Shown here: piece by piece, positions 1-8,262 of the stretch
Position numbering within the stretch: the stretch's first letter is position 1
Layout of the letters: each line of letters opens with the position of its first letter
Assembly: GCF_002571385.2 (NCBI RefSeq)
Contig: NW_019217949.1
Span: forward strand, 466,455 to 523,198
Direction: 5' to 3'
From: Stylophora pistillata
Lineage: Eukaryota
DNA length: 56,744 nucleotides
The notes under the pieces: generated by a model
What the model saw: only the letters and a program-made list of their open reading frames with translations
What the model was told of the DNA's origin: nothing
The model's database searches: none
Program-made: the position numbers and the translations under genes

Positions 1-64
1 TTCATTGTATCTGATTTATCATCACGGGTTTATTACGAATCAACTTAACGGCCTGCTCCCAGTT

Positions 65-137
65 GGCTTGTTAGCTCAATTGGTAGAGCGCTGCACTAGT
101 ATCGCAGAGGTCAGTGGTTCGAATCCCGTACAGGCCT
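65..137 (+). tRNA. tRNA-Thr(AGT)-like sequence, probably SINE-type or pseudo-tRNA (copy 1)
   Basis: Acceptor GGCTTGT/ACAGGCC, D-arm GCTC/GAGC with A box TAGCTCAATTGG, anticodon loop CT-AGT-AT, B box GGTTCGAATCC, followed by T7. Two T-stem mismatches (AGTGG/CCCGT) and one anticodon-stem mismatch. Confidence 0.55.
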
Positions 138-312
138 GATTTTTTTCAGGTCTGATTTTCGCTATTGCATAAATAGCGCTATCTACTGCGAAGGATCGTG
201 CATCATACGTATTTAATACCGCAGTTCAAAATATATGAACTTCATATGTTCATTGTATCTGATTTATCATCACGGGTTTATTACGAATCAACTTAACGGC
301 CTGCTCCCAGTT

Positions 313-385
313 GGCTTGTTAGCTCAATTGGTAGAGCGCTGCACTAGTATCGCAGAGGTCAGTGGTTCGAATCCCGTACAGGCCT
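313..385 (+). tRNA. tRNA-Thr(AGT)-like sequence (copy 2)
   Basis: Identical to copy 1. Confidence 0.5.
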
Positions 386-560
386 GATTTTTTTCAGGTC
401 TGATTTTCGCTATTGCATAAATAGCGCTATCTACTGCGAAGGATCGTGCATCATACGTATTTAATACCGCAGTTCAAAATATATGAACTTCATATATTCA
501 TTGTATCTGATTTATCATCACGGGTTTATTACGAATCAACTTAACGGCCTGCTCCCAGTT

Positions 561-633
561 GGCTTGTTAGCTCAATTGGTAGAGCGCTGCACTAGTATCG
601 CAGAGGTCAGTGGTTCGAATCCCGTACAGGCCT
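561..633 (+). tRNA. tRNA-Thr(AGT)-like sequence (copy 3)
   Basis: Identical to copy 1. Confidence 0.5.
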
Positions 634-808
634 GATTTTTTTCAGGTCTGATTTTCGCTATTGCATAAATAGCGCTATCTACTGCGAAGGATCGTGCATC
701 ATACGTATTTAATACCGCAGTTCAAAATATATGAACTTCATATGTTCATTGTATCTGATTTATCATCACGGGTTTATTACGAATCAACTTAACGGCCTGC
801 TCCCAGTT

Positions 809-881
809 GGCTTGTTAGCTCAATTGGTAGAGCGCTGCACTAGTATCGCAGAGGTCAGTGGTTCGAATCCCGTACAGGCCT
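809..881 (+). tRNA. tRNA-Thr(AGT)-like sequence (copy 4)
   Basis: Identical to copy 1. Confidence 0.5.
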
Positions 882-1056
882 GATTTTTTTCAGGTCTGAT
901 TTTCGCTATTGCATAAATAGCGCTATCTACTGCGAAGGATCGTGCATCATACGTATTTAATACCGCAGTTCAAAATATATGAACTTCATATATTCATTGT
1001 ATCTGATTTATCATCACGGGTTTATTACGAATCAACTTAACGGCCTGCTCCCAGTT

Positions 1057-1129
1057 GGCTTGTTAGCTCAATTGGTAGAGCGCTGCACTAGTATCGCAGA
1101 GGTCAGTGGTTCGAATCCCGTACAGGCCT
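1057..1129 (+). tRNA. tRNA-Thr(AGT)-like sequence (copy 5)
   Basis: Identical to copy 1. Confidence 0.5.
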
Positions 1130-1304
1130 GATTTTTTTCAGGTCTGATTTTCGCTATTGCATAAATAGCGCTATCTACTGCGAAGGATCGTGCATCATAC
1201 GTATTTAATACCGCAGTTCAAAATATATGAACTTCATATATTCATTGTATCTGATTTATCATCACGGGTTTATTACGAATCAACTTAACGGCCTGCTCCC
1301 AGTT

Positions 1305-1377
1305 GGCTTGTTAGCTCAATCGGTAGAGCGCTGCACTAGTATCGCAGAGGTCAGTGGTTCGAATCCCGTACAGGCCT
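1305..1377 (+). tRNA. tRNA-Thr(AGT)-like sequence (copy 6)
   Basis: As copy 1, with D-loop AATCGG instead of AATTGG. Confidence 0.5.
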
Positions 1378-1552
1378 GATTTTTTTCAGGTCTGATTTTC
1401 GCTATTGCATAAATAGCGCTATCTACTGCGAAGGATCGTGCATCATACGTATTTAATACCGCAGTTCAAAATATATGAACTTCATATATTCATTGTATCT
1501 GATTTATCATCACGGGTTTATTACGAATCAACTTAACGGCCTGCTCCCAGTT

Positions 1553-1625
1553 GGCTTGTTAGCTCAATCGGTAGAGCGCTGCACTAGTATCGCAGAGGTC
1601 AGTGGTTCGAATCCCGTACAGGCCT
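1553..1625 (+). tRNA. tRNA-Thr(AGT)-like sequence (copy 7)
   Basis: As copy 6. Confidence 0.5.
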
Positions 1626-4491
1626 GATTTTTTTCAGGTCTGATTTTCGCTATTGCATAAATAGCGCTATCTACTGCGAAGAATCGTGCATCATACGTAT
1701 TAGCGAAATATGTTAATTTGTGTTCTGCTTATGTCTGCGGTGCTTTCATGGAATGAAATGCTTTTTTTCGCTGCCAAATTTTATCAAACCTGCTTACTTT
1801 TCAAGTTCCTTGCGCGGATAATCATAGTATATCGACTTCCAAAGAGCTCAATGCGAAACTTGAAAGTTTAAGACTACCTTTCATGAATTATTAAGATGTA
1901 CTGATTTGGTTGTCTTCTCAATACGCTCTTTGGGAACTTTGGAGGGGCGACACAAATTCAACTGACATTGAAAGAGTTTCTTAATCCTATAATTAAGTCC
2001 AAAGACTGCGATATACTTTTGCAAATAGTTGAGTGCAGCTGATCTGTAAAACTTGCCTAAATTAAAATTTTTAGAGATGTTTGCATATTTAATGAGGATA
2101 ATGGTTTCCAGAATTGAATTTCTGCGACAAAAGTTAAAAAACATCAAACATTTTTGGTTCCAAATGAAGACAACACGATGTAAAGTTGCCGTTTGTGATA
2201 GTTTTTAAATAACTTGAGCGAAATCGAAATAAATTCCCTTTTTTCCCATTTTCGCCGGAAACAGAGGAACAACGAAAACCAGAGGAAAAATAGTTTCACA
2301 GTAAAAAAGTGATATCTCACAACAGCTAATTTCTAAGGACACTTTCTTTTACTAAGCACCTACACAGAATGGTTTGTCTTGAAATATTAAGGTCAGCAAA
2401 AAAAAACAATAAACGTATCACACTCACGAGCAACTGCGAAAAATTGATAATACTTCAACCTTTTCGTCAAAAAAGCTATTTTCACAATAAAATTTTGTGA
2501 TCCGATCTGGCTGGTAAATGTGACGCCAATCTTTCCAATACAAGGCGATCTTCTATTGACAGCTTCTTAACCTGAGCTAAACAATATCTAAAAATTCGAC
2601 TTTGTCAAGTTTAAGTGCATCTGTCGCATAAGATTAACAGAACCGTTTTTAGGAACAGGTTAGTTCTTATATTCACTTTGAACTTAATTGAGAACCTCAG
2701 TTTTTCTCTTTTTTCTTTAACGATATACTCATATGAGCTGCAAGCAGGAACCCCAGAAATTTTATCCTCTAACAATTTTGAGACGGAGTGTGGTAAACTG
2801 TTATAAGAAGTTTAGTATTAATTTTTCAAGGCGGTGAGAGCTTCGAACATGTTATCCTAATATTTGCCACTACTGATAATCTAACCGAAAATTTCAGCTA
2901 ACCTAAGTCTGTGATAAAGACACTCTACAGAAAGTAAAACATCAATGCGCAGACCTCTACGTTATGCCAGAGTCCTAGAAGCGAATTGCCGAGAAAATGT
3001 TGAAATGCTGATACGAGCGCATTTACTGCCTAGCATACTAGAGGATTTTAAAAGAAAACAATTTCGCCAGCGCGGTCCTTAAAGATCAACAGGAATATTT
3101 AATCGTTATAAAAAAAATAGAACACATCTTACCTCACATATATACGAAATTGCCACAAAGTAAAGTAGTAGAAGCATTATTTTAAGTCCGTGCTGCTGCA
3201 AGTTTTCGTATCGATCTCGAAAAGAACTTCGCCTCTGGCGTTTGCAGGTGTATCAAACTTGAAATGGCCCAAAAACGCTGAATTATTAACGCTATTAACG
3301 CACCCCGTTAGATGCCATGGTGACAGATTGACATGGCGATTATGATTATTTTACTTAGCGGTGTTCGTGTCAGCCATGTTGATTTTAAAATTTTGCCGCT
3401 TGGAGAGTTTTTGTTTCCACAAAACACAGAACACAACAGGCCTATGGAAAGGTTAGCGAATGTTTTATATTTGACAAAAATGCCAAATAAAAAAGCGCAC
3501 TGGTTGAAGAAAACAAACCACGAAATGTTTCGTACAGCATGATGAAATTACGATTTTTTTGTCGTCTAAAGTTACTTGATCGTTAAGGACATTTCTCTTT
3601 ACAGTCATTTGTTTCAAGAATGGAAGTATACTAACGTGAAAGTGAGCAAATTCAAATGCATCGGCTTTGTTCGATTAATGAATAATTCACTCGGTATTAG
3701 TGTATGTTAATTAGAGCAGAATTTATTACGGAATGATTTTCTTCTAAAACGTTTCTACTTGGCTTTAAAAATTACACGAGACAATTTGCTCCTCCAAGTA
3801 GAAGTTTCTATCTTCTATCGTGGGTCTTAAGCCGGCACCTTGAGGAATCACTCCAAAACCGCTTTGGTGACACTTCGCCCTTCCACTAACAACAGAGTAT
3901 CTCAACCTACGTCATCTTTACATAAAGAAAATTTCCGACTATTATTTTTGTCATAGTAAACCCGTTAATGTCTTGACACACGATCATGCAGATGAAGTTC
4001 AAACGCTCTTACATTACATGTTATTGCGCGCTTAAATTATGTCCGTTAACAAGTTTCCTCGCTATCGTCACTAATTTACTTTCTAAAATAACTTCTACAA
4101 GTCTTACAAATTTCTGCCTTTAAAGTAAAATAAAACAAAAAATTCTGGATCACATTTAACAACAATCTAAAGTCATCGATAGCTGAGTTCACAAAGAAAA
4201 TGTGAAGCACTCAATTAAGGGTAAATTCAACGGCCTCAGTATTGCGACAAAGTTGGAAGACCACTCAATGAACGTAACAAGCAGGGCAAACTTCTCTTTT
4301 CCCTATTCTGCTAGTTAAAAAAAATCTGATAAATGGTTTTAATTAAGAGTGGAACAACATAATACTACCTTACTACCTACCATTGCAAATCCCTTAATCA
4401 ATACCCTTAGACTGGCTATGAGGTTGTAAAAATCAGTTCAAACTTTTCATAAGGAAATTTTTGGAAGATTAGTTTCCACTTTCATCTAAGC

Positions 4492-5905: not shown

Positions 5906-8262
5906 TTAGTTAAGGACATTTTTTATCATTTCTAAAGCCATTTCAGGGGCATCTATCGGAACCATATGACCAGCATTGAGAATATAGTAAAGGCCAAAGT
6001 TTTTGTAGCTCTTCAAGAAAGCTCCAGTTTCCCTCTTTTCCAATTTTGATGGTGCATACAATGGTTTCCTGGATGCCTTCAAAAATTCTGGCATGCCATC
6101 CCACTGAAGTTTTGAAATCCACAATTCTGGGCCCACAGTTCCACAAATCATATCAAGCTGACCTTCATACACAATCACTTTCACCCCTCCCCTAACAAGT
6201 TCGCCCACATCTGATAACACTGATGATGGGATGTCATTGCGTTGACTGATTGCCACCAAATCTGATTGACCACCCCATGTGACATTTTCTGGTATAATAC
6301 CAAGCTTCTTCCTGATTGGCCCATTCATGAGCTCAAAGAGAGGGTCATGGTGTGCTCTTATTACATATTGCACAAACATTTGATCATGTGACAGCCTGAA
6401 AGTATTCTTGCAGATATGGGATTGTGCGGAGACAGAATCTAATACATTATGACGCAACACATAATAAACATCAACATTGTCTGTTACATTAGCGATGAGT
6501 TTGTTTCCCTTGTCGCTTAAATCCATAGCTGTCTTAAAATCTCCTTTACTGGCAGCACTAGAAGTTTCCGTGGCCAATTCTTGGACATTATTGTAGTCTT
6601 TACCATCCAGCAGTGAAAAGGAAAACAGATAGAGTCCATAAGAGAGAACTGTGTCTTCAAAAGAGATCAAGGAGTCTCCAAGAGCAAGCCCATTAAGTTT
6701 ACACTGAATCTTCTTTTCATTAATCAAGATATATAGGGCCTTACCAAATGCAGCAGCCATTTTACCACCATATGACTCACCAGCAATGAAAAATGGTATC
6801 TTCTGGAAAATTGGGAACTTAAGCAGAAAAGCTTTGAAGAAGGTGACCAAGTCAGCTGTAATTTCTAAAAAGACAAATAATAAGGATTCATTCCTCTCAA
6901 ATAACAGTATTCCAAATTATTGAACCAATAAATATGGAGCTTTGTGCAAAGCTGGGAACCTTGCATTTGCAATATTTTAACAGACTGGCCCTGAGGTTAA
7001 CTTACTTTATTAAAGCTGGTTTAAAAGGGGGCTTGTATAAACAATCTCAAGGCAAGACCAAAACACAGAGATATAGGTTCCCTTACTACTTGTTGTTAGA
7101 AGTGTGTAGGTTCTTTAACATCCCCCACTAATCAGTACAGATTTTAGAGGCAGGAAAGAAGACTAGAAAGTCTAACCATTTGCAGATATCACTACAAAGG
7201 CAGCACATTCTCCTCAATAATTTTTAAGACCCTTAGTCTGGGGTTAGAACCCCCCCCCAACTCCTGCTTGGCAATCTGGAGCTCTTCATAACCTGAACTA
7301 ACAAGGCTTTGCTTTTGCCAAATTCCAGCTGTCTCAATCAAAAAGATTTGTTTCCATCCACACTCTCTCCCCTTTTATCCATTACTTTATGTACTAGGTA
7401 ATCAGCTGGTTAATTTTGCGTCCTTCTCAAGTTTTTTTAAAAATTTAAACAGCTTTAATTTAATTGAAAGGGGAGAAGNNNNNNNNNNNNNNNNNNNNNN
7501 NNNNNNNNNNNNNNNNNNNNNNNNNNNNNNNNNNNNNNNNNNNNNNNNNNNNNNNNNNNNNNNNNNNNNNNNNNNNNNNNNNNNNNNNNNNNNNNNNNNN
7601 NNNNNNNNNNNNNNNNNNNNNNNNNNNNNNNNNNNNNNNNNNNNNNNNNNNNNNNNNNNNNNNNNNNNNNNNNNNNNNNNNNNNNNNNNNNNNNNNNNNN
7701 NNNGGGAAAGGGGGAGGGGCTGAGGGGTTGCATTATAGCAATTTACAAGTCACTTCCACATCCTACTGAAAACAGTATAGGCTTTACCAGTGTGGAAATT
7801 CTGGGCCACAGCTTGCCTAACCTTGCCCAACCCAAAACTGAGCTACGTGTTCAACAAATTCAAAACAAAGGTCCCCTACCAACCTGAGATATTCCTGGTG
7901 AGGGCCGATGGATCTTTGACATAACTATATCCACAACCTACAGGATTATCCACAAAAACGATGTTGGCTTCTCTTATCCACGTTGTGTTGCGCGACTCGA
8001 GACCGACGTCCAGGGGACCGATCTCTGCGAAATTTCCGTACCCTGTGGAGGAAGCCCCGGGACCTCCCTGCAGCCACATTAACAGAGGTTTCTGAAATCT
8101 TTGGGCAGGATCTTTCACCTGGGCCCCATAAAACCACCAAAACATGTGAGCATTTGGTCTGACCTCCACATAATCCCAGGCTTCATCTGGTATCAGTGGT
8201 TCTGATTTCGCAGCTTGAATGGATAGCTGAAAAGCAACGAGCATGTAAGTGATCGAAGCCAT
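5906..8262 (-). CDS. SCPEP1: Retinoid-inducible serine carboxypeptidase-like (peptidase S10), paralog A, 445 aa, 2 exons
   Basis: Exons 8262-7884 and 6864-5906, phase-1 GT-AG intron. Signal peptide, WLQGGPGASS, FVDNPVGCGYSY, GESYGG (Ser), QLDMIC (Asp), AGHMVP (His). Confidence 0.93.

Follow-up and report, generated by a model that had tools for sequence, protein, structure and literature searches.

A dispersed tandem repeat family with a tRNA-Thr-like module in Stylophora pistillata, very probably mobilised by a Penelope-like protein

Animal retrozymes of the non-LTR type (LTR, long terminal repeat) are tandem non-coding units of 220–400 nt, with a unit length of 220–240 nt in Acropora millepora (PMC7229834; bioRxiv 10.64898/2026.07.22.740005). 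Their circular RNA is closed by RtcB (PMC7229834), and a dependence on Penelope-like elements (PLEs) has now been proposed (bioRxiv 10.64898/2026.07.22.740005). In PLEs and retrozymes, the hammerheads of tandem copies pair via a palindromic loop and so act as dimers (PMC4209133). The present study concerns a tandem array of a 248-nt unit at the start of a 56,744-nt stretch of the Stylophora pistillata genome (assembly GCF_002571385.2, contig NW_019217949.1, positions 466,455 to 523,198, forward strand), which is referred to as the window. This array represents a single insertion from a dispersed family of non-coding repeats with thousands of copies, whose unit contains a tRNA-Thr-like module.

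The unit resembles the non-LTR retrozymes in its length, low GC content, self-paired fold and long target duplications, and it falls among the non-coding, self-paired tandem units of 170–400 nt by which retrozymes are recognised. An initial annotation of the window, made from its letters alone, had likened the array to retrozyme-style arrays, a comparison that the non-coding, tandem and self-paired units bear out. It had also reported no hammerhead core on either strand; a core scan agrees, and an Rfam search of positions 1–3000 at E values up to 1 finds the tRNA only. The type I hammerhead of the retrozymes is absent from the unit, with one loose match in 32 cluster representatives. Unlike the retrozymes, the unit carries a tRNA mimic with A and B boxes and a tract of seven T residues (T7) instead of a hammerhead, and a circle in its cycle is predicted only.

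PLE insertions take the form of partial tandems truncated at the 5′ end, to which an inverted copy is often joined, and bear a tail of 30–40 bp at one end (PMC8557442). In vitro, the purified PLE protein of the anole cleaves AT-rich DNA on both strands and extends them, and two internal starts of reverse transcription (RT) bound the "tail" (PMC11167929). Endonuclease-bearing (EN+) PLEs, namely Poseidon PAc (PMC11167929) and Neptune, Naiad and Hydra (PMC8557442), share with the unit 5′ truncation, partial tandems, an inverted 5′ copy, a one-sided tail from two internal RT starts and AT-rich targets. The non-autonomous MRC1 of Chlamys forms multicopy head-to-tail insertions, as found here (PMC8557442). 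Unlike the EN+ PLEs, the unit has no open reading frame (ORF), no hammerhead and no 3′ end in common with any family examined. Its tail measures 49 nt, compared with 30–40 in the literature, about 25 in Poseidon E of the same genome and 90 in Neptune B.

Copy number and insertion geometry of the family

In the 398-Mb host genome, the tRNA arm is matched at least 9,222 times by an exact pattern, and the spacer 3,657 and 4,508 times by two exact patterns. A genome-wide copy count was among the checks put forward in the initial annotation; that first reading missed the dispersed family, with its signature of two end sites, head-to-head arms and 12-bp duplications. A pattern allowing one extra base returned just three insertion variants, and the 248-nt unit has no match in viral contigs. 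No report of a tRNA-bearing, PLE-mobilised coral repeat was found in the literature searched, with Repbase, Dfam and most subscription journals outside the search. The available sections of a paper on an anemone repeat library contain nothing specific to the unit (PMC12070523), and the CMITEs of corals, considered as possible kin, are unrelated to it (PMC2872659).

Insertion arms were mapped at 89 loci, of which 36 were best BLAST hits, 40 were located by a 21-mer and 13 had other origins; a 33-bp minisatellite in locus L056 and arms at locus edges were excluded. In the tRNA sense, 131 of the 155 resolved 3′ ends lie at two sites about 49 nt apart, 71 at one and 60 at the other (end sites 1 and 2, Table 1). 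The 5′ ends are scattered, with just 19 of 142 inside the two end-site windows. Fifty-one pairs of arms lie head-to-head, and none lies tail-to-tail. Eight of the 51 border on gaps, and in 13 an end falls outside the two sites; of the remaining 30, which can be classified, 28 have one arm per end site (p = 4e-7). A target duplication of at least 10 bp flanks 23 of these 28 pairs, with a mode of 12 bp and 78% A+T. In an earlier pass, a duplication of at least 11 bp was present in 24 of 63 gap-free insertions versus 16 of 3,894 mismatched flanks. Classic twin priming from a single RNA was rejected, as it fits only 6 of the 28 pairs.

The same geometry is seen in relatives from other corals, which were found at no fewer than 120 loci by a pattern scan of metagenome contigs and whose full units are about 68–79% identical to that of the window. 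All results given here for the relatives refer to the matches listed. The same two sites account for 99 of 157 ends (55 at phase 131–150 and 44 at 191–200), and there are 35 head-to-head pairs and none tail-to-tail. A duplication of at least 11 bp remains in just 5 of 31 readable pairs, because these copies are more decayed. The host's own PLEs were inspected by eye: Poseidon has four pairs with one short and one long end and duplications of 12–14 bp, and Neptune has one pair with an 11-bp duplication. The family thus combines two fixed internal 3′ ends with 5′ truncation, partial tandems, an inverted 5′ copy and a duplication like that of the host PLEs. It is highly probable that the insertions were mobilised by a PLE protein.

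Some points weigh against this attribution. The end-site windows, which take in 12% of the unit, were set once the data had been inspected, and the loci were selected by best match or 21-mer. No autonomous partner PLE was found among the loci examined. Searches with GIY-YIG and Poseidon proteins show a genome rich in Neptune, Poseidon and Hydra-type PLEs, with 1,590 and 3,794 candidates; among the 120 PLE loci examined from the matches listed, none bears a unit-like terminal repeat. Readable PLE termini among these matches mostly bear hammerhead-like motifs and none resembles the unit, although the two end motifs of Poseidon E bear a loose likeness to sites 1 and 2. No homology of the unit to a pseudo-LTR (pLTR) was found. 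No Naiad ORF appeared among motif-pattern matches (4 versus 10 in the control, then 2), and six words of the unit are absent from the Naiad/Chlamys/Hydra supplement.

Several candidate partners were set aside during this search. Two unit copies 2.66 kb apart, considered as a pLTR pair, proved to be a segmental duplication, and PLE fragments beside arrays (L061, L111, L163 and L164) looked like neighbours or gap joins. Poseidon family E (L291–L323) is young, and its hammerhead-like core starts with UUGAUAA, not CUGANGA; most of the Poseidon families printed among the matches listed show a variant start of this core. At L359:657-1403, two different Poseidon families stand tail-to-tail, directly after the first end site of one of them.

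The array of the window has a period of 248, 6.9 copies and 99% matches in Tandem Repeats Finder, and its units differ at just five positions altogether. A scaffold gap of 1,432 N lies immediately 5′ of position 1, so the start of the array, the second arm and the target duplication are out of sight. In many other arrays the inner units show the majority sequence and the edge units bear the marks of another subfamily. Gap-filling is therefore likely, and the exact length and homogeneity of the array in this assembly may be inflated by it. The homogeneous 248-nt tandem array of the initial annotation accordingly stands as a real array of 6.9 units, with its homogeneity and copy count remaining soft. 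The tandem structure itself is backed by 20 locus-private substitutions, found at 12 of 82 loci, that recur in at least two units. Contigs of two runs (X1 and X14), one of which is possibly from the source sample, span the 3′ junction at 1701, and at positions 1697–1702 contigs of four runs continue into many different sequences as loose ends. No empty allele was seen at this junction in the run contigs.

The tRNA-like module and the structured spacer

The array receives seven tRNA-Thr(AGT) calls from ARAGORN, and each module scores 48.9 bits in Rfam versus 71.9 for the genome's genuine Thr(AGT) gene. The module is identical to that gene at 50 of 73 positions and to eight other tRNA genes at 38–48. 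An Ile(AAU) origin, also considered, is unsupported; two patterns had no matches, and the nearest gene, though only narrowly so, is Thr(AGT). The A and B boxes, the T7 tract, the paired acceptor stem and the defective T and anticodon stems are as first annotated; the tract lies at 140–146, the acceptor stem has seven pairs (one G-U), and there are two non-pairs in the T stem and one (A31-C39) in the anticodon stem. The module bears U73 and an AGU anticodon, and the relatives have a GGU anticodon with C33. The broken T stem is specific to the subfamily of the window and is mostly intact in the relatives. An intact cloverleaf with a conserved anticodon loop, as expected of a functional tRNA-Thr, is lacking. 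The earlier judgement that the module is unlikely to decode is upheld by its score, its stems and the combination of GGU and C33 in the relatives.

Two further tRNA calls were recorded in the genome. The locus L391:1501-1573 (−) holds an old family copy of 66 bits that ARAGORN calls as tRNA-Thr(GGT), and such copies pass as tRNA genes. At L373:903-977 (−), a call of tRNA-Ile(GAT), which has an anticodon uncommon among animals, adjoins a tRNA-Lys gene.

Non-decoding tRNA-like modules have been described in other mobile elements. The TRIMp3 elements Helenus and Cassandra are, like the unit, non-autonomous and carry a tRNA-like module for RNA polymerase III (Pol III) in a terminal repeat; the modules often read as tRNA-Thr(AGT) and inflate tRNA gene counts (PMC10886601). 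TRIMp3 are LTR elements with a primer binding site, a polypurine tract, fixed ends and 4–5-bp duplications, in contrast to the scattered 5′ ends and 12-bp duplications of the unit, and there is no internal region between the units of the present family. The nearest tandem Pol III element is the SINE-like retroposon Sm-alpha of schistosomes with its counterpart Sj-alpha, built of tandem Pol III-type units of which at least two copies are needed for propagation (PMC6765202). Sm-alpha and Sj-alpha cut their multimers by a hammerhead, and the unit has none.

All four spacer hairpins of the initial annotation are recovered at the positions it gave, with predicted pairing probabilities of 0.76–1.0, and the fold of the unit is better than that of 200 out of 200 shuffles (z −4.1). 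A T run of at least six is kept in 75 of 85 distinct full units measured. The covariation check proposed for the hairpins is borne out at H2, which covaries across subfamilies. The leader of the window unit is predicted to pair with the tRNA part (Table 1), and none of 150 leader shuffles folds as well; z lies below −2 in just 9 of the 19 family members tested, and a test of leader–tRNA duplex energy is weak. Positions 226 (leader) and 51 (tRNA) are C-G in eight sequences and A-U in five, probably as one event, and the same change disrupts the T stem in the subfamily of the window. The acceptor pair 7:66 is U-A in nine and A-U in 11 sequences of a 20-sequence alignment, whose covariation counts reflect few independent events. 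RNAalifold, run on A1, recovers H1–H3 and part of the T region but misses both the cloverleaf and the leader pairing. Another insertion (L056:4429-4893) has at its 5′ end a 54-bp minisatellite composed of 33 nt of leader and other sequence, which suggests repeated template jumps.

Template of the insertions and role of the tRNA part

Among 111 fully resolved arms, 71 extend upstream of the tRNA +1 position, 33 cross at least two unit starts and 39 hold at least two T7 tracts. There is no excess of 5′ ends at +1 (4 seen, 3.6 expected) or at 34–42, and the weak excess at 74–81 in the T tract (8 versus 3.8 expected) is not significant over 248 windows. The two arms of a single insertion share locus-private changes. 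Over their outer 248 nt they differ by 3.0% versus 4.9% between insertions (27 pairs; 0 of 2,000 permutations), a similarity that could be explained by one circle, by one source multimer or by gene conversion. The template was most probably a circle or a multimer and not a linear monomer. Gene conversion as a source of the similarity counts against this conclusion, as does the possibility that long arms were gap-filled. The RNA data consist of contigs from poly(A) runs alone, in which a circle junction has the same sequence as a tandem junction; these contigs contain the unit and span the T7 tract, and cannot show strand, level or ends.

The best explanation as a whole, which is put forward tentatively, is that a PLE protein copies an RNA circle excised by host tRNA-splicing enzymes from two neighbouring units. 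Pol III would transcribe from the A and B boxes, and a transcript that now and then ran past the first T7 tract would give a 330-nt RNA, with read-through by RNA polymerase II as an alternative source. In this RNA, nt 1–37 of unit n and nt 38–73 of unit n+1 would make up the tRNA body, and the two palindromic loops would form the anticodon-intron helix with a C32-G pair, while H1 and the leader would mask the inner tRNA halves. The tRNA splicing endonuclease (TSEN) would cut after nt 37 of both units, and RtcB would close the 248-nt "intron", exactly one unit. The tRNA mimic would in this way stand in for the dimeric hammerhead of the retrozymes. At the target, the PLE protein would nick both strands about 12 bp apart, RT would be primed at site 1 from one nick and at site 2 from the other, and the two cDNAs would join at their 5′ ends. 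End sites 1 and 2 are accordingly inferred to be RT starts.

The anticodon loop is palindromic in 250 of 257 copies of this genome and in 37 of 58 relatives, where single CpG-type decays account for 13 of the 21 exceptions, and the palindromic core is present in 97 of the first 100 of the 9,222 genome matches. Two lineages carry two palindromes, ACTAGT and ACCGGT, separated by a two-base switch. In the 330-nt RNA, from +1 to the T7 tract of the next unit, the predicted probability is 0.85–1.0 for the cross-unit acceptor stem, 0.88 for the D arm and 0 for the own-unit acceptor stem. The constrained pre-tRNA fold is 2.1 kcal/mol less stable than the minimum-energy fold, and a loop-loop motif resembling a bulge-helix-bulge occurs in about a quarter of the ensemble. 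In 15 two-unit stretches of this genome, the cross-unit acceptor reaches at least 0.99 in 14 and the central helix at least 0.6 in eight. From the sequence and the constrained fold, the two-unit substrate would combine a proximal C32-G pair with a distance of 6 nt to the 5′ cut and a 3-nt bulge. Fly pre-tRNAs follow rules that include the C32-G pair and the 6-nt spacing, and their introns are circularised by RtcB (PMC6614914). The predicted geometry is like that of these tRNA intronic circular RNAs (tricRNAs) in the C32-G pair, the distance to the 5′ cut, the 3-nt bulges and the circularisation (PMC6614914). It is unlike them in that the "intron" is a whole mobile unit from two tandem copies, the helix is fully paired, the T arm is weak and the cut is predicted only.

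A number of observations stand against cleavage by TSEN. The cross-unit anticodon helix of the window unit has a predicted probability of just 0.25, the T arm of the downstream unit stays at or below 0.15 in all 15 folds from this genome, and in five two-unit stretches of the relatives the cross-unit acceptor forms in one and the central helix in two. A31 and C39 form no pair, and a central helix of 6 bp is favoured over one of 4. A T7 tract inside the "intron" is expected to stop Pol III. The CTAG core is native to the genome's genuine tRNA-Thr(AGT), and family A may therefore simply have inherited the palindrome; CTAG and CCGG are separated by one double event, obtainable by two CpG decays. 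In flies, a fully paired anticodon-intron helix lowers splicing (PMC6614914). Processing of the two-unit fold by TSEN and RtcB is a bold step in the model and is best regarded as possible. A ribozyme-free class of elements, in which TSEN and RtcB release the circle and a dimeric Penelope RT copies two sites into one 12-bp staggered cut, may be envisaged with slightly greater reserve.

The most serious alternative keeps the same PLE mobilisation and takes an uncut, multimeric read-through RNA as the template, with the tRNA part as Pol III promoter alone and an inherited palindrome. A promoter-only role has been argued for Helenus/TRIMp3 (PMC10886601) and for Sm-alpha (PMC6765202). All the evidence from end geometry is compatible with this alternative, the CTAG is already there in the genuine Thr(AGT) loop, and the most amplified subfamily has lost the T stem yet kept the B box; uncut RNA is moreover the dominant insertion substrate of the anole PLE in vitro (PMC11167929). 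It leaves unexplained the covarying acceptor pair, the second palindrome and the leader that masks the inner tRNA halves, and arms with several T7 tracts demand repeated read-through; this alternative is somewhat doubtful. The palindromic loop could otherwise be a kissing-loop dimerisation signal that brings two RNAs onto a dimeric PLE protein to give two arms. The retroviral dimerisation initiation site (DIS) is a comparable kissing-loop signal. The 6-nt palindrome within a 9-nt loop and the favoured 6-bp cross-unit helix would suit such a signal, as would the predicted dimer of the PLE protein (PMC11167929). The arms of one insertion are closer to each other than random copies and share locus-private changes, which favours one template or source array, and Poseidon makes two-arm insertions without any tRNA; a dimerisation signal is improbable. 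The initial annotation had considered a host RNase P/RNase Z site that cuts multimers into monomers at each cloverleaf. Conservation of the acceptor and D stems and the covarying pair 7:66 speak for it, whereas the acceptor stem of the single unit has a probability of about 0 in multimers and the 5′ ends do not pile up at +1 and show only the non-significant excess at 74–81. The arms also cross both sites freely, and cutting at both ends would split the promoter from the RT sites. The suggestion fares badly and is still less probable than the dimerisation signal. As the role of the tRNA part, TSEN cleavage therefore ranks ahead of a promoter alone, a dimerisation signal and an RNase P/Z site.

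Two more conventional explanations dispense with the PLE. A tRNA-derived short interspersed element (SINE) dependent on a long interspersed element (LINE), with twin-priming inversions and later local tandem expansion, would account for the tRNA head, the scattered 5′ truncation and the variable length of the duplications. There is no poly(A) or simple-repeat tail, the ends are internal, and the arms end at fixed, different sites, overlap in phase and extend upstream of +1. As in SINE2 elements, tRNA-derived A and B boxes are present; the 5′ end at +1 with a single tailed 3′ end is not, as 71 of 111 arms begin upstream. The LINE-dependent reading is largely refuted by the end geometry and is very improbable. 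A functional tRNA-Thr(AGT) gene cluster would agree with the ARAGORN call, U73, the AGU anticodon and the T7 terminator. Against it stand the score of 48.9 versus 71.9 bits, the broken T and anticodon stems, the C33 and GGU of the relatives and the mobile-element geometry of the copies, which leave it virtually no chance. The initial annotation took the array for something other than a plain tRNA cluster or a typical tailed SINE, which is in keeping with this geometry, the two internal ends and the missing tail. The unit appears to work like a PLE-dependent non-LTR retrozyme without a hammerhead, with the TSEN step as a conjecture, and is neither a canonical SINE nor a Helenus-type TRIM (terminal-repeat retrotransposon in miniature).

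Features of the window and significance of the family

The features of the family within the window are collected in Table 1.

Table 1. Coordinates of the array, the parts of its unit and the further family copies in the window.
Feature	Position	Strand	Remarks
Insertion arm	1..1701	+	6.9 head-to-tail units, phase 1 = position 65; from scaffold gap to family end site 1
tRNA-Thr-like module	65..137	+	A box ~72–83, B box ~116–126; repeats at 313, 561, 809, 1057, 1305, 1553
Palindromic anticodon loop ACTAGT (nt 31–36)	95..100	+	ACCGGT in relatives; predicted pairing with loop of next unit
Hairpin H1	133..152	+	T7 tract in loop; predicted to capture 3′ strand of own acceptor stem
Hairpin H2	160..178	+	3 of 7 pairs with compensatory changes between subfamilies
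Stem H3	185..225 (185–190 with 220–225)	+	End site 1 within loop
End site 1	205..218	+	Phase 141–154, peak 145–149; 71 of 155 3′ ends; array stops here at 1697–1701
Hairpin H4	230..250	+	Predicted fold and alignment
End site 2	253..268	+	Phase 189–204, peak 193–200; 60 of 155 3′ ends; loose contig ends
Leader	272..312	+	Phase 208–238 complementary to T arm and variable loop; phase 239–248 to D arm of next unit
Second copy	39866..40043	−	5′-truncated (39878–40000, phase 23 to site 1); 12-bp duplications 39866–39877 and 40032–40043
Third partial copy	40859..40951	−	Within local duplication of ~950 bp

The surroundings of the two further copies, at 39.8–41.4 kb of the window, are themselves repetitive. 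The duplication of about 950 bp holds a 330-bp repeat of another kind along with the partial family copy, and a short repeated sequence of about 30 nt lies between this duplication and the 5′ end of the family copy. Elsewhere in the window, two serine carboxypeptidase genes (Pfam Peptidase_S10) in divergent orientation are located at 5906–8262 (−) and 13587–16995 (+), each with one unusually long exon of about 330 amino acids. Tandem homeodomain exons occur at 27042–27407 (−) and 34567–34956 (−), with similar upstream exons at about 30.7–31.2 kb and 35.8–36.2 kb. Frames that by eye resemble the C-terminus of a LINE reverse transcriptase, with no Pfam RT match, are found at 28271–29257 (−) and 49499–50639 (−).

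The family constitutes a large natural record of Penelope insertion. The rule of one site per arm (28 of 30 pairs), together with the private changes shared by the arms, points to priming of both target strands in one event from one source. In published accounts of the PLE cycle, this step is still open (PMC8557442; PMC11167929). If TSEN cleavage proves true, a mobile element would make its circular template through host tRNA splicing, without a ribozyme; no use of TSEN by a mobile element was found in the literature searched, with most subscription journals outside it. With more than 9,000 look-alikes of tRNA-Thr in a single coral genome, both tRNA gene counts and repeat annotation would be distorted. 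Nematostella has 17,000 tDNAs (tRNA genes), mostly clustered (PMC2888827), and these may include elements of this kind. Should the proposed explanation hold, these coral elements would make up thousands of the "tRNA genes" in coral genomes.

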